Positions 18,869 through 29,966 of a stretch of 64,000 nt of DNA are shown here, piece after piece; the stretch's first letter is position 1; each line of letters starts with the position of its first letter. This DNA is from Candidatus Rokuibacteriota bacterium. GTDB taxonomy: Bacteria; Methylomirabilota; Methylomirabilia; Rokubacteriales; CSP1-6. The notes under the pieces were generated by a model. It searched no databases. It was not told the origin of the DNA and was given only the letters and a program-made list of their open reading frames with translations. The stretch lies in contig VGLJ01000022.1 of the NCBI GenBank assembly GCA_016866775.1, forward strand, positions 480 to 64,479, written 5' to 3'. Position numbers and translations under genes: made by a program.

Positions 18869-19324
18869 ATGCCGGATGACACGCGAGAACCTGTAACGCT
18901 CGAGACGCTGCACCGGGATATGCAGGTCGGCTTCGCCGACCTGAAGAGCACGTTGATCTCAGGGTTCCGCGGCTTGCCGGGCCGGGAGACGGCTGAAGAA
19001 ATGGTGCGGCTGCTTCGCGAGGGCAACCGCATCCAGGAGACCCGCCTCATCGAGCTCGACGTCCTTGCGCAGCAACGTCACATGGAGCTGGACACGCTCA
19101 TCCGGCGGCAGCACCTCGAGACACACCAGATCCTCGGCGAAACCCACGAGATCCTCCGCGCAATGGCCGAGGAACACCGCGGAACCCGACAGACCCTCGA
19201 GGACGCGCGCGTCGAGACCCAGCAGGCCCTCCGTGCGCTCAGCGAGGAGATTCGACGTCTGGCCGCCCAGATCAGGGCACTGATCCGGGGGCGCCGCAAC
19301 GGGGGCGACGCTACTCGAGGTTGA
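18869..19324 (+). CDS. hypothetical coiled-coil protein
   Basis: Heptad-like, Q/E/R/L-rich sequence ([49 protein letters not shown]). The start is uncertain (18848 or 18869). Confidence 0.4.
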
Positions 19325-21241
19325 AGCGCTTCAGGCGGGTGTAGAGCTGCGAACGGCTGAGGCCGAGGATCGCGGCGGCGCGCGAACGGGTCCCCTTCGC
19401 TGTCCTGAGCGCGTCGGTGACCATCTGCCGCTCCCAGTCTGCGAGCGACTGATGCCCGTCACCTGATTCGGTCCGCGCGGGTGTGGTCTCCGCCACGGCG
19501 GGGGACGAGGCGCCGCCACGCCCCCCGCGGGGGGCCGCGATCGCGAGCTGCGCCGCCGTGATCAACCCACCGTCCGACACGATCAAGGCGCGCTCGATCG
19601 CGTTCGACAGCTCGCGGATGTTGCCCGGCCACGAGTGAGAGAGCAGGACGTCGCGCGCGTCGCGGCTCAAGCCCGGCTCGCCCTTGCCCATGCGGCTGCC
19701 GATCTCGCGCACGACGTGGTCGGCGAGCAGGAGGACGTCGTCACCGCGCTCGCGCAGCGGCGGCAGATGCACGGCGAACACGTTCAGGCGATAGAAGAGG
19801 TCCTCGCGGAACCGGCCCGTGTCGACTTCACGTTCGAGATCCCGATTGGTGGCGGCGATGACCCGGACGTCGGCGCGAATCGTCGCCGTGCCGCCGACGC
19901 GCTGGAACTCGCGCTCCTGCAGGACGCGCAGGAACTTCGCCTGGACCGCGGCCGACAGCTCGCCCATCTCGTCGAGGAACAGCGTGCCGCCCTGCGCCTG
20001 CTCGAAGCGGCCCGGCCGCTGGCGATCGGCGCCGGTGAACGCGCCCTCCTCGTGCCCGAAGAGCTCGGACTCGAGCAGCGTGTCGGGCAGCGCGGCGCAG
20101 TTCACGGCGACGAACGGTCCGTTCGACCGCGTGCTGCCGTGATGGATCGCGTGCGCGACCAGCTCCTTGCCCGTGCCGCTCTCGCCCGTGAGCAGCACGG
20201 TGGTGTCCGTCGTCGCCACCTTCGCCGCGCGCTGCAGCTCCTGACGCAGCGCCGGCGCGCGGCCGACGATGCGGTCGAAGCCGTAGCGCTCGCCGAGCTC
20301 CGTGCGCAGCGACTCCAGGCGCTCTTCCAGGCGGCGCGCGCGCCCGCGCTCCTCACCGAGCCGCTGGTGCTGGATCGCGAGCACGACTTGCGCGGCGATC
20401 GCGCCGGCGTCCGACGCATCGAACCAGTTCGGACGCTGCTTGCCGAAGTAGAGGCCGCCGCCGACGCGCTCCCCGAACCTCAGCGGCAGCGCCATCACCG
20501 AGCGCCCGCCGCCCTCGATGATGAGGTGGTCGCCGGGGAGCGAGGGATCGGGCTCGGTCGTCGCGTCGTGGGTGATCACGGCCTCGCCGCGCAGCACGCG
20601 CGCCGCCATCGAGAAGCTGTCGAGCGGCATCCGCGGGGCGTCGGCACGTGCGCCTGATCCTCGGGATTGACCTCGGCGATGACGTCGATGTCGCGGCCGC
20701 TCGGCGTCACGATGCCCACGCCCATCACGTCGAAGTCCATCGCCGGCCGCACGGTCTCGGCCACGCGCTCGAAGACTTCCTTCACGTTGAGCGTGGAGCC
20801 CGGCACCACGGGCAGCCGCTCGAGCGCCGTCATGCGCTCGCGCCGGCGCCGCTCGCGCGGGCGCAGCACCGCGTTGTCGACGGCGGGCGCGATGTGGTCC
20901 GCGACGTGACGGCCGAGCGTCACGTGCCCCTCGGTGTAGGCGCCGGGGGTCAAGGAGGGCCCACTCCGAGACCGTGTAGCGCGCCTCGCGCTCGACGTCG
21001 GTCGTGTAGTGGTCCTCGTGCACACGGGGCCACGCACGACGTGCTCCGCGAACACGCGGAACGTGCGGCCGTTCTCGTCGAGCGCGTCGACGACGAGCCG
21101 ATCGTGCGGGAGCACGGGCTGGAGCACGTCGGACAGCGCGGCGAGCACGCGGTCCCGCGGCACGTCGTCGCGCAGCGAGACGGCGACGGAAGCAAGCGAC
21201 GCCCCGAGATCCCCGACGGGATGCGGATCGTGCGCGGCCAC
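19311..21241 (-). pseudogene. sigma-54-dependent (NtrC/Fis-type) transcriptional activator with N-terminal GAF domains, disrupted by three frame breaks
   Basis: AAA+ sigma-54 core ([22 protein letters not shown]) and a C-terminal Fis HTH in ORF 19311..21023. The GAF region switches frame at ~21020, ~20948 and ~20635. The GTG start overlaps the pfk TAG by 1 nt. Confidence 0.7.
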
Positions 21242-22488
21242 TAGCGACCGACGAGCGGCCCGAACCGGCTGCGGAGCTCCGTCTCGGTGAGGTTGCCCGC
21301 CTTCGCGAGCGCGGTGACCGTGTCCGGGTTGTCGAAGTCTTCGGGCTTGAGGCGGATCATGTACGCGTTGAGGGTCTGGTACGCCTCGGACTCCATGTCG
21401 ACGTAGCGCACGCGGATCTTGCCGGTCTTCGGGTCCAGCATCAGCCCGAACGGAATCGGGACGAGCCGGCCCGCCTGGATCGTCACCATCGCGTTGGTGC
21501 CGCCGTCGAGCAGGAAGCGCGTGGCCCAGTAGCCGAGGCTGCGGCAGTACTGGATGTCGGTCGCGCCGGGCGGCGCGCAGCGCAGCTCGTAGCCGAGGTC
21601 CTTCGCCACGATCGTCACGTCGAGGCCCCGCGCGCGCAGGTTGCGCGCCACGCAATCCTTCACGAGGCGCCCGAGGTCGAGCTCCGCGAGGCGGACGTTG
21701 CCGTAGGCGTCGCGCTCGACGTCACCGAGCGTGCCCGGGTCGAGCTTCTCGGCGATGCCCTCGGCGAGCAACGCCACGCCGTGCTCGCGGCCGTGCGAGC
21801 GGCGCTTGATGATCGCGCCTTCGAGGATGTCGGCCACGCGATCGAGGCTGACCTGGCCCTCGGGGAACTCTTCGGCGACGACGGTGAGCGTGGCCGCGGC
21901 GGCGCCGCCGACGCCGAGCGCCAGGTGCCCCGCGTGGCGCCCCATCACGGTGACGAAGAACCACCGCTCGGTCGTCGCGGCGTCGTTCATCAGGTTGCGC
22001 ACGAGCTCCTTGCCGAGGTTCACCGCCGTCGTGAAGCCGAACGTCATGACGTCGCCGGGCAGAGGGAGATCGTTGTCGATCGTCTTGGGCACGTGCGCGA
22101 CCGTGAGGCCGGGCATGGAGCGCGCGAGGCGCGACGCGCTGAAGCAGGTGTCGTCGCCGCCGATGGTGATCAGATGATCGACCCCGAGGCGCTAGAGCGT
22201 CTCCGCCACGTACCGGATGCCGTCCTGGGTCTTCGTCGGGTTCGTGCGCGAGGTCCGGAGGATCGAGCCGCCCTCGAAGTGGATCCGCGACAGCTCGCCG
22301 ATGTCGAGCTCGGTGACGTGCGACGTGTCGCCCTGGACGAGCCACTTGAAGCCGTCGTAGCAGCCGAGCACGCGTAACCCGTGGTTGCGCGCTTCGATCG
22401 TGGCCGCCGCGATGACCGCGTTGATCCCCGGCGCCGGTCCGCCGCCGACCAGGATTGCGAGCGTCTTGGGTGAGGACATCCCTTCCAT
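21241..22488 (-). pseudogene. pfk: 6-phosphofructokinase, probably PPi-dependent (GGDDT motif), interrupted by an in-frame TAG
   Basis: Two track ORFs, 22192..22488 and 21241..22116, are split only by a TAG at 22192-22194 where homologs have Glu. The 75 nt between them encode RLGVDHLITIGGDDTCFSASRLARS in frame. Other motifs are GGGPAPGINA, MGR and PKTIDND. Confidence 0.75.
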
Positions 22489-22672
22489 CCTACGCCCGCC
22501 AACGCGCCGCGCACAAAGCGCGGCCCGGGGTTTGGGTCCTCAGCTGTCGGGCCCCATGGTCAAAGGTACGCGAGGAGGCGGCCGGCGGCGATCACGCCGA
22601 TCCAGAGCACGAGCGACGCCACCGCGGCGGCGCGCGCGGTGATGGGCACCGGCTCGACGAGGACGAGGAAAC

Positions 22673-23473
22673 TTAGAACGCCGGCCCTCGGAGGCCGATC
22701 AAGAAGCCCGCAAGCATATCCCACCCCGACGTATGACCTAGCGACGTCAGGTCACGCGCGGCGCGGACCGTGTCTTCGCGATTCGCATCGACGAGGGCGA
22801 GCGCGAGGGCGTGCAGTGGTTCCCACCCTTCGCCGCCCGCGAGATCCTCCAGGAGCCGGGCGCTGATCGGATGGGTCAGCGTGGCGGCATCCGCGACGAT
22901 CCGCGCGGCGGCAGTCTTCCACGCGGCGGGATCCGTTGCGGTCACCAGACACCGCGCGAAGAGCGCACCACCGACGTAGTCGTCGCCCGACGGCGTGAGC
23001 CCGGGGCCGAGCCCGAGCAGTGAGTGCGCCGCGACCGCGAAGGCCGCGGCGTCGTCCGTGGCGGCTGCCTGCGCCAACGCGTGCGCGTGACCACGCGCGC
23101 GCGACGTGACGAGATCGTCGCCGGCGCGCGGCAGCGCGAGGCGAGCGAGGCCGCGCGGCTCGCCGAGGCTCCCGATCGCCTCCTTGAGCCTCCGCGCGAC
23201 GTCGCGGCCGTCACGGAGCGCCGCGAGGGCAGGAGGGCGCCACGGCGTGGCGCTCGCGACGATGACATCGATCGACGGCTCGGCGCCCGCGACCGGCGGC
23301 GCCGAGAGCGCCACGCCGCGCGGGTGCAGCGGCGTGCCCGGCGGGCCGACCCAGATCAGCTCGCCGGCGGCCATCGCATAGACCGAGGTGGAGAGCCGCG
23401 CGATCACGTCCGCGCGCCCGCCGCTCGCCGTGAGCGCCGCGTGCGCCCGCCAGCCGATCGCCTTCACCGTCAT
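22673..23473 (-). CDS. DUF2877 (YlbF/AllH-like) protein
   Basis: 266 aa with GLGPGLTPSGDDY, as remembered for the E. coli YlbF family. It lies next to FdrA-type, DUF1116 and carbamate kinase genes. Confidence 0.5.
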   Translation of the reverse strand: MTVKAIGWRAHAALTASGGRADVIARLSTSVYAMAAGELIWVGPPGTPLHPRGVALSAPPVAGAEPSIDVIVASATPWRPPALAALRDGRDVARRLKEAIGSLGEPRGLARLALPRAGDDLVTSRARGHAHALAQAAATDDAAAFAVAAHSLLGLGPGLTPSGDDYVGGALFARCLVTATDPAAWKTAAARIVADAATLTHPISARLLEDLAGGEGWEPLHALALALVDANREDTVRAARDLTSLGHTSGWDMLAGFLIGLRGPAF

Positions 23474-23636
23474 TCGTCGAGGCGAGCGAGCTGCGCGGCG
23501 ATGTCGGGCGCGCCGGCCGGCGGGCGCCAGTCCACGTGGACGACCGTGACGCCCTCGCGCTCGAGCTCCTCCGCGAACAGCTCGAGACCGACGTTGACCA
23601 CGTTCAACGGCCGGCCGAGCAAGCTCGTCAACGCCA

Positions 23637-24707
23637 TCACGTGTCTCCGAGGATCTTCGGCGCCAGCGTCGGATCGAGCGCGAGCGCCGCGAACCGTGCC
23701 GCCTGCGTGTTCGACGGGAGCACCTCCACTCCCGCGTGCTTCAGCGCGTCGATCTGCGCCGCGCGGTCCTGCGGGTCGGCATCCGTCCCGACGACCGACG
23801 CCACCACGCGCAGCGCGCGGCCGTCACGCTCGGCCTCGCGGCGCGCGTCGCCGATCGCCGCGGCGAGTGAGCGCGCCGGATCGGGATGCGCCGCCCGTCC
23901 GAGCACGAGGTCGAGCAGCAGCACTCCGACCCCGGCCGTCCGGCCGGCCTCGCGGACGAGGCCGTCGCGCGCGGACGGATCGATCATCGGATGCGGACGC
24001 CCTCGCGTGAACTCGTCGGCGCCGAGGTCCATGACGCGATGGGCGCTCGTCGCCGCGGTGCCGACGTTCCCGCCGACCGGTCCGATGAGCGGCTCGAGCA
24101 CGAGGCGGGCCTCGTGCGCGAGCGTGCCTCCGGTGTAGAGCGCGAGCAGCCCTGCGCGCGCGTTCGTCACGGCGAGCCGGGCCCGTACGCTGGCGGCATC
24201 GCTGAACGTCGTCGCCCGCCACGCCTGCCTTCGCACCGCCGCAACGGCGGCACCGTCCATGCCGTTCTGGCCGTTCAACCCCGGCGCGCCGTCCTTCCCG
24301 TTCTGACCGGCGGGGCCGGGCGGACCCTGGAGGCCGGCGCCGCCGATCGTGAGGTCCCAGAAGTCCGTCCGGGAGTCGCCGTTGCCCGTCGACACCATCA
24401 GGCGGTAGTCGCCCGGCTGGATGTCGATCGGCAGGCTGGCGGCGACCTGCGTGGGGTGGGCGCTCACGACACCAAGCGGGGACCCCGCGAGCACGACCTG
24501 GGTCGTCCGCTGCCTGCGCGTGAGGTTCACGCCGTTGATGACGATCTGGTGCGCGCCGGCGTCGACGTGAATGCTGCCGATGACGAGATGCTTCTTGTGG
24601 TCGTCGTCGTCATCGGCGTGCGCCACCGGCGCCGCGCCGCCGAGCGCGACCAGGAACGCCACGAGAGCCACGATCACGAGCCGTCCGATCTCCGTCATGT
24701 TCCGCAT
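23637..24707 (-). CDS. chimeric ORF: signal peptide, beta-rich domain, collagen-like (GXY)10 segment, and a C-terminal domain homologous to FdrA residues ~330-486
   Basis: GGAGGAGGAG precedes MRNMTE. Signal peptide LVIVALVAFLVALGGAAPVAHA|DDDDD. Collagen-like run GAGLQGPPGPAGQNGKDGAPGLNGQNGMDG. The tail (GRPHPMIDP...VLLLDLVLG...PSNTQAARFAAL) aligns to the end of the 28506..29966 FdrA protein. Confidence 0.5.
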   Translation of the reverse strand: MRNMTEIGRLVIVALVAFLVALGGAAPVAHADDDDDHKKHLVIGSIHVDAGAHQIVINGVNLTRRQRTTQVVLAGSPLGVVSAHPTQVAASLPIDIQPGDYRLMVSTGNGDSRTDFWDLTIGGAGLQGPPGPAGQNGKDGAPGLNGQNGMDGAAVAAVRRQAWRATTFSDAASVRARLAVTNARAGLLALYTGGTLAHEARLVLEPLIGPVGGNVGTAATSAHRVMDLGADEFTRGRPHPMIDPSARDGLVREAGRTAGVGVLLLDLVLGRAAHPDPARSLAAAIGDARREAERDGRALRVVASVVGTDADPQDRAAQIDALKHAGVEVLPSNTQAARFAALALDPTLAPKILGDT

Positions 24708-24852
24708 CGCCGTCTCCTCCTCTGCCTTGGCCGGTCCGCCCCGGGGGGCCGGCGTTCGTTCCTCGCGACGCGACACGAGTACCGAGGAGGGCGCAAGATT
24801 TCGTCAAAGCCATCGTCAAAAGCTCGTCAAAGGCGGGACGACCGGCTGCTGG

Positions 24853-25557
24853 CTAGGCTGGTCGAGGGCGTCGTGGGCCAGCCACGATAGACACCCCGTC
24901 GAGCGCGCGCAGGAGCCGCTCGCTCTTCGCGACCCAGCCGAAGATGCCGCCCTGGGCTTTCACCATGGCGAGGGCGGCGGCGTGGAGCTCGGGGAAGTAC
25001 GAGGCGACGCAGTCCTCGAGGACCAGGCACTCGAAGCCGCGATCGTTCGCCTCGCGCACGGTCGTCTGCACGCAGACCTCCGTCGTCACGCCCGTCACCA
25101 CGAGGCTCTGCACGGCGAGGCCGCGCAGCCGCGCCTCGAGCTCCGTCGCGTAGAACGCGCCTTTCCCCGGCTTGTCGATGACGAGCTCCTCCGAGGTCGG
25201 GCGGAGCTGGTCGATGATGCGGTGGCCGGGCTCGCCGCGCACGAGGATCCGTCCCATCGGGCCGCGGTCGCCGATGCCCTTCGCCAGCCGCCCGCGCCGC
25301 CGCTTCGACGGCGGGCAGTCGCTGAGATCGGCGGTATGGCCTTCGCGCGTGTGGATGACCTTGAGGCCGCGCGCGCGGAACGCGTCGAGGACCTTGCGCG
25401 TGGGCGCCACGGCGTGCCGGAGGAGCGCGACATTGTTCCCGAGCATCTCGCCGAACCCGCCGCGCTCGAGGAAGTCGCGCTGCATGTCGATCACGAGCAG
25501 TGCGGTCCCGGGGGGATCGCAGACGAACTCGTACGGCTCGGCCTGCACCGTGATCAC
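24853..25557 (-). CDS. isochorismatase-family cysteine hydrolase (RutB / biuret hydrolase / N-carbamoylsarcosine amidase-like)
   Basis: [10 protein letters not shown], the conserved Lys region, and [14 protein letters not shown] with the nucleophilic Cys. GTG start in ATGTGA overlap with the carbamate kinase stop. Confidence 0.7.
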
Positions 25558-26534
25558 ATCTGGAAGGAGAGCTGCATCGCGTCGTTGGGGACGACGAGCG
25601 TGCCGGCGCGGCCGCGCACGCCCTCGAGCGCGTCCTCGAGCGCGCAGATCGTCGCCTGGCCGCCGCCGTCGTGGACGAAGCGATACGCCGCGCGGACCTT
25701 GGGCCCCATGCTGCCGGCGGAGAACGGCTCGCGGACGAGCAGGCCTTCGAGCTCGGAGAGCGTCACCCGGCGGAGAAACTGCTGCGTGGGCTTGCCGAAG
25801 TCGACGGCGACGCCGGGCACGTCGGTGAGGATCAGCAGCGCGGCCGCGCGAACCTCGAGCGCCAGACGCGCCGCCGCCGAGTCCTTGTCGACGACGGCCT
25901 CCACGCCCTCGAACCGCCCGTCCGGGCGGCGCAGCACCGGCACGCCGCCGCCTCCGCACGCGATCACGACCGCGCCGACGTCGAGCAGCGCGTGGACGAC
26001 GTCGACTTCCACGATGCCGAGCGGCTGCGGCGACGGGACGAGCTTGCGCCAGCCGCGCGCGTCGACTTCCGTCCACACCTCGCGCTTGTCGCGCATCCGC
26101 TGCTCGGCCACGGCGCGCGGCAGGAACGGGCCGATCGGCTTCACGGGCGTCGCGAACGCCGGATCGTCCGCGTCGACGAGCACCTGCGTGACGATGCTCG
26201 CGACCGGCCGCGCGAGGCCGCGCGCCCGCAGGGCGTTCTTCAGCGCCTGCTGGATCATGTAGCCGATCTGGCCCTGGGTCTCGGCGCCGCACACGTCGAG
26301 CGGCACCGCGGGCACGAGATGCGACGCGGCCTCGTTCTGGATGAGCAGGGTGCCGACCTGGGGGCCGTTGCCGTGCGTGAGCACGGGCTGGTAGCCCTCG
26401 GCGATGAGCTGCACGATCTGCTCGCACGTGCGGCGGATGTTGTCGTACTGCTCCGTGTAGCTGTTGAGCTGCTTGGATCTCAGGATCGCGTTGCCTCCGA
26501 GCGCGACCACGATGCGATGCTCGTCGAGTCGCAT
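25554..26534 (-). CDS. arcC: carbamate kinase
   Basis: [10 protein letters not shown] and the carbamate kinase signature THGNGPQVG; 326 aa. TGATG overlap with the upstream gene. Confidence 0.85.
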
Positions 26535-27928
26535 CAGCCGGCGAGCGCTTCGAGCGCGGCGGTGAAGCAGCCGAGCGGCGCACGCACCACGCCGGCGCCG
26601 ACCTGGCCCACGCCGGCGACCTTGCTCGCGATGCCGGTGTTGATGATCGGCGCGATGCCGGTCTCCACCACGCGCAGCACGTCGATCCCCGCGGGCGCGC
26701 CACGCTCGTCCAGGCTGGCGATGCGGAAGTGCGGGTGCTCGGCGTGGCAGATCTCGCGCATCGCGTCGGTCGTGGCGAGCGCCTCGGCAACGCCGCCGGC
26801 GCCGAGGAAGCGCGCGACGGCGGGGGAGGCGGCCATCGCGCCGCCGCCGAGCCCGATCGTCTCGACGATCGCGCTGTCCCCCATGTCGGGATTCGCGTCG
26901 TCCGGGCCGTAGCCGGGGAAGTAGAGGCCGACCGGCATCTCGACGGGTGCGACGAACCACCGCTCCCCGAAGTGCGACACGCGGATGCCGAAGTCCGTGC
27001 CGTTGCGCGCCATCGTGGTCACGAGCGTGGAGCCCGGCACGCCGCCCGCCGGATCGACCATCGATTTCCCCGCCGCCATCGCAAGGTTCAGGAAGAACTG
27101 GTCGTGGCCGGCGAGGAACTCGGCGAGGCGCGCGGCGGCGTGATGCCGGTCGGCGACGCGCGCCACGTGCGGCATCAGGGCGCGGACGAACAGCGACGAG
27201 GCCCCGACGTTGCGCTGGTGCATCTCGTCGCCCATCCGGAGCGCCTGCGCCATCAACGGGCGCAGCTCGATGCCCTGGCTCGCGCGCAGCGCGGCGCCGA
27301 ACAGCGGTCCGGCTTCCTGCGCGAGCCAGGTGAGACGCGCGATGACCGACGCGTCGTTCGCGCCGTAGCGCAGCACCTTGCCGAGCCCTTCGTTGATCGT
27401 CACGTGCGCGCGGTTGCCGTGCGCGCGGTTCTCGACGACGAAGACCGGCATCGACGCGGTGAGCACGCCCGCCATCGGCCCGACGGCGCGCCGGTGGTGG
27501 CAGGGCTCGAGCCGCACGTCGCCGCGGACGATCAGTTCGGCGGCCGCATCGTCGTTGGCGGCCCAGCCCTCGTAGCGGATCGCGCAGAGGATCGCCGCGC
27601 GCACCGGCGGCGCCACGCGCTCCCACGCGATCGGCGGCCCCGAGTGGAGGACGAGCCGGTCCGGCAGCTCCATCGCCTCGCGCGCCGGCCGGCAGTCGAG
27701 CAGCACCGGCTCGCCGTTGACGAGGATGTCGAACGCGCGCTGGTTGGCGGCGTCGATCTCCGCGCGTCGCGTCTCCAGGCGCGCGAGGAGCGCGGCGAGC
27801 GTCGCGTCACCGCCCGCGGGCGGGCGCCAGTCCACGCCGACCACAGGGACGCGAAGCTGCGCCAGCGCGTCGGCGAAGAGATCGAGGCCGACGTTCACGA
27901 CGCGCGGCGGGTTCGGCAGCGCGCTCAT
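26534..27928 (-). CDS. DUF1116 (YlbE/AllG-like) protein
   Basis: ~464 aa starting [18 protein letters not shown]. Placed between FdrA and carbamate kinase, as in the E. coli fdrA-ylbE-ylbF-ybcF arrangement. The family assignment rests on size and context. Confidence 0.5.
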
Positions 27929-28509
27929 TCGAGCTCCAGCGCGAGGTCGCTCACGCGAAACCCGCTGATCGGATTCAGGTCCATCGGGCACGCGCTGACC
28001 GCCGCGACGAGGTCGATCAGCGCGCGCAGCTCGACGACGTCGCCCGGCTTCGCGAGCGACTCCAGCCACTCGGCCCGGCCGTCGACGTAGCGCATGTGCT
28101 GGAAGAAGTTCACGGGTTGCGGCAGCTGGTGCCGCGCGCGCGCCCACGGCGCGAGGACTTCGAGGAAGTTGTCGGAGCAGTTGCGGTGGCCGGTGACGCC
28201 GAAGTCCAGCTCGTAGCGCCACGGGTCGCACGCGGAGATGAGCATGTCGTGCCGGCCCGTGTCGTCGCGCGTGATCTCGACCATCGGCCGCCGCCGGTTC
28301 GTGCGGAGCCGGTCGCCCGTGGTCGGGAACAGCCGCTGGAGCGAGACGAGCGTGTGCAGCGTGCTGAGCGACTCGTCGAGATCCGCCGCGTTGAACGCGA
28401 CGAAATCCGCCACCTGCTTGCCCTGCACGTTGACGATGCGCATTCGCTGCCCCGCGCGCAGCGTGACGGCACGCGCGGTCGTCGCGGGAATCTCGATGCG
28501 CTGGCTCAT
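27925..28509 (-). CDS. DUF1989 (urea-carboxylase-associated family) protein
   Basis: 194 aa starting MSQRIEIPATTARAVTLRAGQRMRIVNVQGKQVADFVAFNAAD...RDDTGRHDMLISACD. The pattern is recalled for TIGR03424/03425-type proteins. ATGA overlaps on both sides. Confidence 0.45.
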   Translation of the reverse strand: MSQRIEIPATTARAVTLRAGQRMRIVNVQGKQVADFVAFNAADLDESLSTLHTLVSLQRLFPTTGDRLRTNRRRPMVEITRDDTGRHDMLISACDPWRYELDFGVTGHRNCSDNFLEVLAPWARARHQLPQPVNFFQHMRYVDGRAEWLESLAKPGDVVELRALIDLVAAVSACPMDLNPISGFRVSDLALELE

Positions 28510-29966
28510 CCGCGGGCCTCCGAGGCGCGCGCGGCGATCAGCGCCGCGAGCCGTGCGGCCTGCGCGTTCGACGGCATGACGATGACGCCCGCCCGCGCGA
28601 GGGTCGTTGTCTGGCGTGCGAGCCCTTGGGGATCGCCGTCGGTGCCGCACACGCTCGCCACGACGGCGACGCCTTCACGGCGCGCCCGCTCGATGGCGGC
28701 AAGCAGCTCACCGGCGGGATCGGGATGTGCGCCGTAGCCGAGCACGACGTCGAGCAGGATCACGGCGGTCGTCGGATCGGCGGCGTCCTTGACGATCCAC
28801 TCCCGGCGGATCGTGCCGTCGATCATCGGATGCGGGCGCCCGACGGTGTACGCGTCGTCGCCGAGGTCCACCACGCGGTGACCGCCGGGCAAGAGCGCGG
28901 CCGCCTCTTGCGCGAGCGTCCCGCCGGCGTACACGCCGCGCACGAAGCGACGGCCACTGCTCAACGACGCCGCTGCATCCGTGACCAGGCGCGCGACGTC
29001 GTCGTTCGGGATGGTGAAGCCGACCGGCCGATGCCGCTCGCCACGCGCGAGCGCGACGGCGGCGTGCGCGGTGTCTTCCAGCGTGGAGACGCCGCCGGTG
29101 AAGTGCGCGATCCAGGGCTTGCCGAGCGCGGCGAGCCAGCCGTCGATCTTCTTCGCGGTCATCGGACCCGGCGGCTTGCCGATGACGCAGATCACCGACG
29201 TCGCGGGATCGGCGGCGAGCGCCGCGAGCGCCGGCTCGAGCATCAGACCGCCGACGTCGTCGGAGAGGTCGCGACCGCCGAGCCCGATCGCGTGCGAGAC
29301 GCCTTCACCCGCCGCGGCGAGGTGACACGTCACCGCCTGGAGCCCCGTGCCCGACGCCGCGGCGATCCCGATGCGGCCGCGCGGCACCGCGTTCGCGAAG
29401 CCGAGCGGCACGCCGCCGAGGATCGCGGTCCCGCAGTCGGGCCCGAGCGCGAAGAGCCCGCGCTCGCGCGCGAGCTGCTTGAGCCGGACTTCGTCGGCGA
29501 CCGGCACGTTGTCGCTGAAGACCATCACGTGCAGCCCGGCGGCGAGCGCCTTCGTCGCCTCCGCCGCGGCGTAGACGCCGGGTACGGAGATCAGCGCGAG
29601 GTTCGCGTCGGACAGCGCCGCCATCGCCAGGCGCAGCGAGCGGCGGCGCACGACGCCGCTGATGGACGGCCCGCCGCCGCCACCTCCGCGTGACGCGCGC
29701 GCGAGGGCGTCCTCTCCCGCCGCCCATGCGGCGCGCGCGGCGTCCTCGCGCTCGGCGACCACCGCGACGACGAGATCCGTCGGGCGCGCCGCCTCACCCT
29801 CCGCGGTGAGCAACCCGGCGTCACGCAGCAGCGCCAGGTTGTGCGGCGTGCCCATCATCGCGGCCGCGCGTGTGACGCCCGTCACCGCCTCCATGTCCCG
29901 GCTGAGGCGCATCAGCGTCACCGAGTCGTGATACGCGCCGCGCCGGACGAGGTTCCAGACGGGCAT
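28506..29966 (-). CDS. fdrA: FdrA/AllF-family protein (acyl-CoA synthetase NDP-forming / succinyl-CoA synthetase alpha-like)
   Basis: 486 aa. SCS-alpha-like GPDCGTAILGGVPLGF, a Gly-rich CoA-binding region, and a C-terminal GRPHPMIDG...PSNAQAARLAAL. Confidence 0.7.
   Translation of the reverse strand: MPVWNLVRRGAYHDSVTLMRLSRDMEAVTGVTRAAAMMGTPHNLALLRDAGLLTAEGEAARPTDLVVAVVAEREDAARAAWAAGEDALARASRGGGGGGPSISGVVRRRSLRLAMAALSDANLALISVPGVYAAAEATKALAAGLHVMVFSDNVPVADEVRLKQLARERGLFALGPDCGTAILGGVPLGFANAVPRGRIGIAAASGTGLQAVTCHLAAAGEGVSHAIGLGGRDLSDDVGGLMLEPALAALAADPATSVICVIGKPPGPMTAKKIDGWLAALGKPWIAHFTGGVSTLEDTAHAAVALARGERHRPVGFTIPNDDVARLVTDAAASLSSGRRFVRGVYAGGTLAQEAAALLPGGHRVVDLGDDAYTVGRPHPMIDGTIRREWIVKDAADPTTAVILLDVVLGYGAHPDPAGELLAAIERARREGVAVVASVCGTDGDPQGLARQTTTLARAGVIVMPSNAQAARLAALIAARASEARG

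Follow-up and report, generated by a model that had tools for sequence, protein, structure and literature searches.

Here, we describe an open reading frame (ORF) of 356 codons in which the beginning of a secreted, collagen-like gene runs in frame into the end of an allF (fdrA) gene. It lies in a 64,000-nucleotide (nt) stretch of Candidatus Rokuibacteriota bacterium DNA (GenBank assembly GCA_016866775.1, contig VGLJ01000022.1, positions 480 to 64,479), referred to below as the window, and occupies positions 23637..24707 of the minus strand, with its ATG at 24707 and its TGA at 23639-23637. The exact protein has an NCBI record, MBM3219237.1, labelled hypothetical. Pfam searches and gene calls identify the surrounding genes as an oxamate carbamoyltransferase system (Table 1). 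Directly 3' of the chimeric ORF (the chimera) stand a 55-amino-acid (aa) ORF resembling the N-terminal module of AllG and an allH gene, the latter present as a single copy in the window (one tblastn match). The cluster's own allG gene, allG2, is deleted, which leaves only allG1 of the other cluster.

A first-pass annotation made from the letters had read in this ORF a strong Shine-Dalgarno sequence, a Sec signal peptide with a DDDDD linker, a beta-rich module, ten uninterrupted GXY triplets and a C-terminal part alignable with the neighbouring FdrA, and all of these were recovered. In residues 1-31 a charged n-region precedes a hydrophobic core whose 11-residue Kyte-Doolittle mean reaches 3.55, and A-H-A stands ahead of DDDDD; the signal peptide is predicted by inspection of the hydropathy profile and the A-x-A rule, and homologues share this layout. 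The beta-rich module is IPT/TIG-like as judged by its relatives, the chimera's own Pfam TIG match being below threshold. In the stalk, glycine occupies every third position from G122 to G152, and the Pfam Collagen match (E 1.6e-4, 21.8 bits) falls under the gathering score of 27.2. The ten triplets compare with a median longest GXY run of 16.5 (16.5-19) in the family.

The C-terminal half belongs to AllF. Residues 153-340 align with residues 302-467 of the neighbouring AllF1 (45% identity, E 2e-30), Pfam places Ligase_CoA (PF00549) at residues 190-341 (profile positions 1-126 of 128, E 2.7e-24), and the same half matches the E. coli FdrA structure (PDB 3DMY, E 4e-28). Its closest intact counterpart is protein P0002, the AllF2 of a related 61-kb contig (L011), with 87.6% nucleotide and 88.6% to about 90% aa identity and with the GRPHPMID motif kept in the alignment. 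The FdrA-like half is thus paralogous to the neighbouring FdrA, as the first-pass annotation had it, and its true parent is a separate paralogue, allF2. The rest of AllF is missing. Pfam reports Ligase_CoA and Collagen only for the chimera, without the HMA_AllF_N domain (PF27530) that intact relatives have and without the middle CoA-binding/Succ_CoA_lig-like Rossmann domain, which lies at residues 192-291 of P0002 and 198-283 of AllF1 and of which tblastn shows no segment near the chimera either. Searching the window with AllF1 by tblastn returned only allF1 itself and 24173..23682, so that, as already observed, no FdrA N-terminal half exists there in any frame.

Table 1. Features of the chimera and of the genes around it (positions in the window).
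Feature	Position	Strand	Basis or remark
allF1	28506-29966	-	Pfam, gene calls
DUF1989 gene	27925-28509	-	Pfam, gene calls
allG1 (464 aa)	26534-27928	-	Pfam, gene calls
Carbamate kinase	25554-26534	-	Pfam, gene calls
Isochorismatase-family hydrolase	24853-25557	-	Pfam, gene calls
Replacement segment, 604 bp (145 nt upstream region and codons 1-152 of a signal peptide/IPT/collagen gene)	24252..24855	-	blastn, junction alignments
Three exact TTTGACGA direct repeats, 11-12 nt spacing	24801..24831	-	94-124 nt 5' of ATG
Shine-Dalgarno AGGAGG	24716..24721	-	9-14 nt 5' of chimera ATG
Predicted Sec-type signal peptide MRNMTEIGRLVIVALVAFLVALGGAAPVAHA, then DDDDDHKKH linker (codons 1-31)	24615..24707	-	Hydropathy and A-x-A rule
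IPT/TIG-like beta module, ending in DFWDLTIG (codons 38-121)	24345..24596	-	Family relatives
Ten GXY collagen triplets, cut at the junction (codons 122-152)	24252..24344	-	Gly at every third position
Junction peptide across the collagen/AllF2 join, DGAPGLNGQNGMDGAAVAAVR			
allF2 remnant with complete Ligase_CoA and GRPHPMID (codons 153-356 and stop)	23637..24251	-	= P0002 residues 305-508
55-aa ORF	23470-23637	-	Start overlaps chimera stop (TGATG)
allH (DUF2877/AllH, PF11392 E 3.4e-22)	22673-23473	-	Start overlaps 55-aa ORF stop (ATGA)

To either side of the chimera, the contig L011 runs collinear with the window, and it preserves what lay between. Its gene order runs allF1, DUF1989, allG1, carbamate kinase and isochorismatase, followed by an opposite-strand Bmp-type ABC transporter operon, allG2 (414 aa), allF2 (508 aa), a 58-aa ORF and allH. 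In more distant Rokubacteria (L019 and L020/L021), carbamate kinase, isochorismatase, an opposite-strand ABC transporter, allG2, allF2 and the small ORF follow one another in the same way; allH after the small ORF of the second cluster is seen in the closest relative, L011. Since three related lineages have this layout in common, it is ancestral and the state of the window is derived.

Alignment by blastn delimits the change. Window positions 24856-29046 correspond to L011 1-4182 at 90.3% identity (the upstream cluster, 24853..29966, being intact and collinear with that segment), positions 22691-24251 correspond to L011 10913-12498, and the 604 bp between them, 24252-24855, have no match in L011. 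A 6.7-kb segment (L011 4183-10912: the ABC transporter, allG2 and codons 1-304 of allF2) has therefore been exchanged for 604 bp. The left junction coincides with the end of the isochorismatase gene, whose product has 234 aa in the window and 238 aa in L011. At the right junction the window reads ATG GAC GGT / GCC GCC GTT and L011 reads GCG GAC / GCC GCC GTC, so that microhomology amounts to about 5 nt at most, and allF2 homology starts exactly at codon 153 of the chimera. This breakpoint lies between the middle domain of P0002 (192-291) and its Ligase_CoA domain (342-493), which is why the whole Ligase_CoA domain survives. A search for repeats around the junctions found no terminal inverted repeats and no target duplications, only the TTTGACGA iterons. 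The first-pass proposal that a second fdrA had been truncated by a foreign secreted gene thus holds for the truncation, given intact allG2-allF2 at the orthologous position in three lineages; what was acquired is a 604-bp fragment, coupled to a 6.7-kb deletion that removed the ABC transporter operon and allG2, and not a whole foreign gene. The distance from the upstream gene, given earlier as 76 nt, is 145 nt when measured from the ATG to the stop at 24853, the smaller figure having been counted from an in-frame GTG at 24776.

The chimera is confirmed as genuine and not misassembled. The protein, exact or with 1-2 aa variants, is encoded on 24 contigs drawn from JGI assemblies, an ENA MEGAHIT assembly and Logan assemblies of separate runs, and all 15 contigs that were fetched (at least 15 samples, three pipelines) are collinear with the window over both junctions at 99.9-100% identity, contrary to the misassembly that had been suspected at the join. 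Among 5.8 billion proteins searched, nothing else came closer to the C-terminal half than 90% identity, and hence no intact copy of the population's own allF2 coexists with the chimera in those samples. The sequence shared at the right junction is also far too short for a de Bruijn assembler to be misled by it.

The N-terminal half belongs to a large and modular family. A HMMER (phmmer) search with residues 1-152 returned 1716 relatives (E<=1e-3), nearly all of them aligned at their own N-termini, with a common layout of signal peptide, acidic linker, IPT/TIG module, collagen stalk and variable head. Among 125 relatives surveyed with Pfam, 111 carry Collagen and 62 carry TIG (PF01833), and Hcp-like, Kelch, Lcl_C, Gly_rich_2, MopE, PKD and phage collar domains are among the heads. 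P0124 is the best relative, with 60% identity over residues 11-152; further triplets and a glycine-rich head follow there. An AllF-like part is absent from all 149 best relatives of the N-terminal half, and among the 120 best FdrA matches only the chimera covers the N-terminal half of the query; homologues with the same full-length architecture, which the first-pass annotation had allowed for, were thus lacking in both sets. Among the proteins examined, the signal peptide/IPT/collagen/Ligase_CoA architecture is unique to one near-clonal population.

The 604-bp fragment is more likely native to Rokubacteria than foreign. Its G+C content at third codon positions (GC3) is 0.93, a value typical of the host (0.87-0.95 in neighbouring genes) and at odds with the foreign source first proposed, and its nearest DNA relatives are contigs of about 71% GC. 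A foreign origin was rejected on composition. Searches for the donor gene gave little: a word-indexed protein search with residues 1-152 returned P0121 only, a weak negative because that search missed even the chimera itself (P0001); a scan of genome contigs was empty; and a scan of metagenome contigs yielded only a 24-residue collagen match. No second copy of the fragment was found by tblastn or blastn in the window and all fetched loci. A separate observation concerns a high-GC contig (L013, 990-1806) with two tandem genes (114 and 112 aa) that encode the IPT-like module alone. Only one of them has a signal peptide, both lack a collagen stalk, and a similar repeated sequence stands 5' of each. 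Small secreted proteins made of this module alone thus seem to exist as well.

Upstream of the chimera, TTTGACGA occurs three times, its only occurrences in the 64 kb (0.46 expected), all within the imported upstream region; the sequences 5' of the homologues in L013 and L023 showed no such repeats. A regulator-binding array or a stack of -35-like elements, brought in with the fragment, would be possible readings. A consensus scan showed no terminator-like site between the allF1 operon and the downstream genes, and an Rfam scan gave only a chance miRNA match (E 0.82).

The amino-acid changes in the allF2 remnant bear on its age. Between the window and L011 the ratio of nonsynonymous to synonymous substitution rates (dN/dS) is 0.145 for the remnant, and intact neighbours range from 0.08 to 0.22. 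When L019 is used as outgroup to polarise the changes, 9 nonsynonymous and 19 synonymous ones fall on the window branch and 8 and 19 on the intact L011 branch, so that omega on the window branch (~0.19) is no higher than in the intact relative. For 437 nonsynonymous and 175 synonymous sites, ~47 nonsynonymous changes would be expected if the branch were fully neutral, and a rough Poisson bound puts the neutral share of the window branch at ~20% or less. The lack of excess nonsynonymous change means that the truncation is recent or that the domain is still constrained, and the two are inseparable because all chimera contigs are at least 99.9% identical.

Other lesions lie within 5 kb downstream. 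The phosphofructokinase (PFK) gene (21241-22488, minus strand) differs from L011 by a single CAG>TAG change at 22192-22194, where L011 has a Gln codon. Its two halves are otherwise ~97% identical to the 415-aa L011 protein, with dN/dS ~0.08, and the in-frame TAG is present in every population contig that reaches the position; it represents either a very recent nonsense mutation or read-through. A sigma54 activator gene (ending at 19311) has several frameshifts in its N-terminal GAF region (~20500-21650, minus strand) and a ~57-aa deletion in the first GAF domain, leaving a C-terminal ORF of ~439-570 aa open where L011 encodes a 702-aa GAF-GAF-AAA-HTH protein. Between allH and PFK, 1.4 kb of L011 (12499-13871: His_Phos, DUF6152 and DUF6644) is absent and the window has 37 nt (22654-22690), a difference that, with no outgroup to orient it, may be a deletion in the window or an insertion in L011. 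Several inactivating hits at one locus fit the reading of the chimera as a scar.

We conclude, with a probability of about 75%, that the chimera is a genuine, recently formed fusion ORF left by illegitimate recombination in one Candidatus Rokubacteria population. In the proposed sequence of events, the ancestor would have carried isochorismatase, the opposite-strand Bmp-type ABC transporter operon and then a second cluster of allG2, allF2, a 55-58 aa ORF and allH, as in the closest relative. Some 6.7 kb, from the last isochorismatase codons to allF2 codon 304, would then have been swapped for 604 bp that brought along an upstream region, a ribosome-binding site and the first 152 codons of a secreted-family gene, and the join would have landed by chance in frame in the inter-domain segment of allF2. 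The product, read from M1, would be a Sec-exported IPT domain on a short collagen stalk bearing an orphan AllF C-terminal Rossmann-like domain. With the N-terminal and middle AllF domains missing, AllG2 lost and the product exported, it would be unable to act as an AllF subunit and enzymatically dead, and the fusion protein most likely has no function at the protein level.

The effect of the event on allH would be of a different kind. Because the divergent promoter region before allG2 is deleted, expression of allH must presumably rely on the imported upstream region, on read-through from the allF1 operon, or on both. Translation of the chimera would be handed on to the 55-aa ORF and allH through the stop/start overlaps, and allH would be needed by the intact AllF1 and AllG1. 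The E. coli enzyme requires allF, allG and allH together (Kim & Kim 2024, PMC11326118). Such coupling would be a reason for the frame to stay open, but could not alone account for a conserved amino-acid sequence. A side observation on allH itself is its divergence from the L011 gene (11716-12516), at 75.5% aa identity and a synonymous divergence (dS) of 0.71 against 89-97% and 0.16-0.38 for its neighbours, with dN/dS at 0.22 despite that divergence. This could reflect recombination with a distant allele or a locally raised rate of evolution.

Several points weigh against a mere recombination scar. The AllF stump shows no excess of amino-acid change and keeps all conserved motifs, which fits continued selection equally well, and the fusion, which is fixed in the population, still holds a whole domain and has a strong ribosome-binding site. 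Simple consensus scans picked up neither promoter-like nor terminator-like sites. A source for the 604 bp is suggested by family resemblance only (60% at best, to P0124), the donor gene not having been found, and the role of the fusion in expressing allH is purely our inference from the arrangement of the genes.

These points leave some room for a newborn gene that is already under selection, either as a secreted, enzyme-derived Rossmann head on a stalk or as a translated leader whose frame stays open because expression of the coupled 55-aa module and the only allH depends on it; we consider this unlikely. Taken as a neofunctionalised secreted fusion, in which the AllF C-terminal Rossmann-like domain was recruited as an extracellular head and is kept by selection, the proposal is a little more doubtful. 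The signal peptide/IPT/collagen family is modular and carries many different heads, what was captured is a full Pfam domain, the window branch shows no higher omega than the intact relative, and the ORF is intact in every contig. Against this, the architecture is confined to one population of at least 99.9% identity, which leaves no time for selection to show; the heads of relatives are extracellular binding folds and not nucleotide or CoA-ligase domains; the stalk is shorter than the family median; and the event broke up an operon at a locus with further fresh lesions. The genuinely novel functional domain fusion that the first-pass annotation had offered as an alternative found no positive support.

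It is more improbable still that an internal start (M150 or TTG144) yields a ~207-aa cytoplasmic AllF C-domain that works with the 55-aa module, AllH, AllF1 and AllG1. An in-frame ATG (M150) does stand 3 codons before the AllF junction, with TTG144 also in frame, the C-terminal domain is conserved, and the downstream partners are translationally coupled. No Shine-Dalgarno-like sequence lies at a workable distance before M150, however, the sole AAGGA being 14-18 nt 5' of TTG144, and the internal ribosome-binding site that the first-pass annotation had asked about is thus wanting; AllF1 already supplies a complete C-terminal domain, and no free AllF C-domain family was seen, the short matches lying on ~1-7 kb contigs and being perhaps contig-end fragments. 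Least credible by far is an assembly chimera uniting two unrelated loci, for although the window derives from a metagenome-assembled genome and low-complexity, GC-rich collagen repeats can mislead assemblers, the 15 contigs from different samples and three pipelines are identical at both junctions, the sequence common to both sides is far under any k-mer size, and neither an intact allF2 nor a donor gene of matching identity turned up in the databases searched.

The recombination scar preferred here can be set beside known systems. Like FdrA/AllF of the E. coli AllFGH system (3DMY), the chimera has the AllF C-terminal part (residues 153-356 are 39% identical to FdrA residues 300-498) and stands directly 5' of a small module ORF and allH, an arrangement that allF2 has in L011 too; it differs in lacking the HMA_AllF_N and CoA-binding-like domains (AllF2 1-304), in having a signal peptide and in the deletion of its partner allG2. 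Textbook collagen-like proteins of bacteria include Legionella Lcl, Streptococcus Scl and Bacillus BclA. With the collagen-like secreted proteins of its own family (P0124, P0125) the chimera shares the signal peptide, an acidic/His-Lys linker, an IPT-like module ending in DFWDLTIG and GXY triplets, but its stalk ends after 10 triplets and a cytoplasmic enzyme domain replaces the extracellular head. Young pseudogene fusions made by deletion or illegitimate recombination resemble it in being derived relative to three outgroups, in short microhomology, in restriction to one clonal population and in nearby lesions; the chimera departs from them in that its join is in frame and inter-domain, its ribosome-binding site is strong and no relaxation of constraint is yet apparent. 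Taken whole, the ORF is a fusion generated by deletion, and objects of this kind are known.

The 55-aa ORF that follows the chimera is no debris but a conserved, free-standing version of a ~50-residue module also found at the AllG1 N-terminus (window 27770-27928). The same module forms the C-terminal tail of E. coli FdrA/AllF (residues 513-552, 47% identity; L024 3217-3336) and is missing from the 414-416-aa AllG2 proteins, and the free ORF stands after allF2 in all four Rokubacteria lineages (the window, L011 11527-11703, L019 9314-9481 and L020 11542-11715). Occurrence in three settings, as AllF tail, AllG1 N-terminus and free ORF, is the pattern expected of an inter-subunit adaptor, which the module might be, and these three encodings may help work on the AllFGH complex.

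For annotation, MBM3219237.1 is best described as what remains of allF2, joined to part of a collagen-like gene, and not as a new domain architecture or protein family. The population represented by the window has lost its second AllG/AllF pair together with a nucleoside-type ABC transporter. If expression of the fusion and selection on it were demonstrated, it would offer a clean case in nature of a gene born through the capture of a domain onto a modular collagen stalk.

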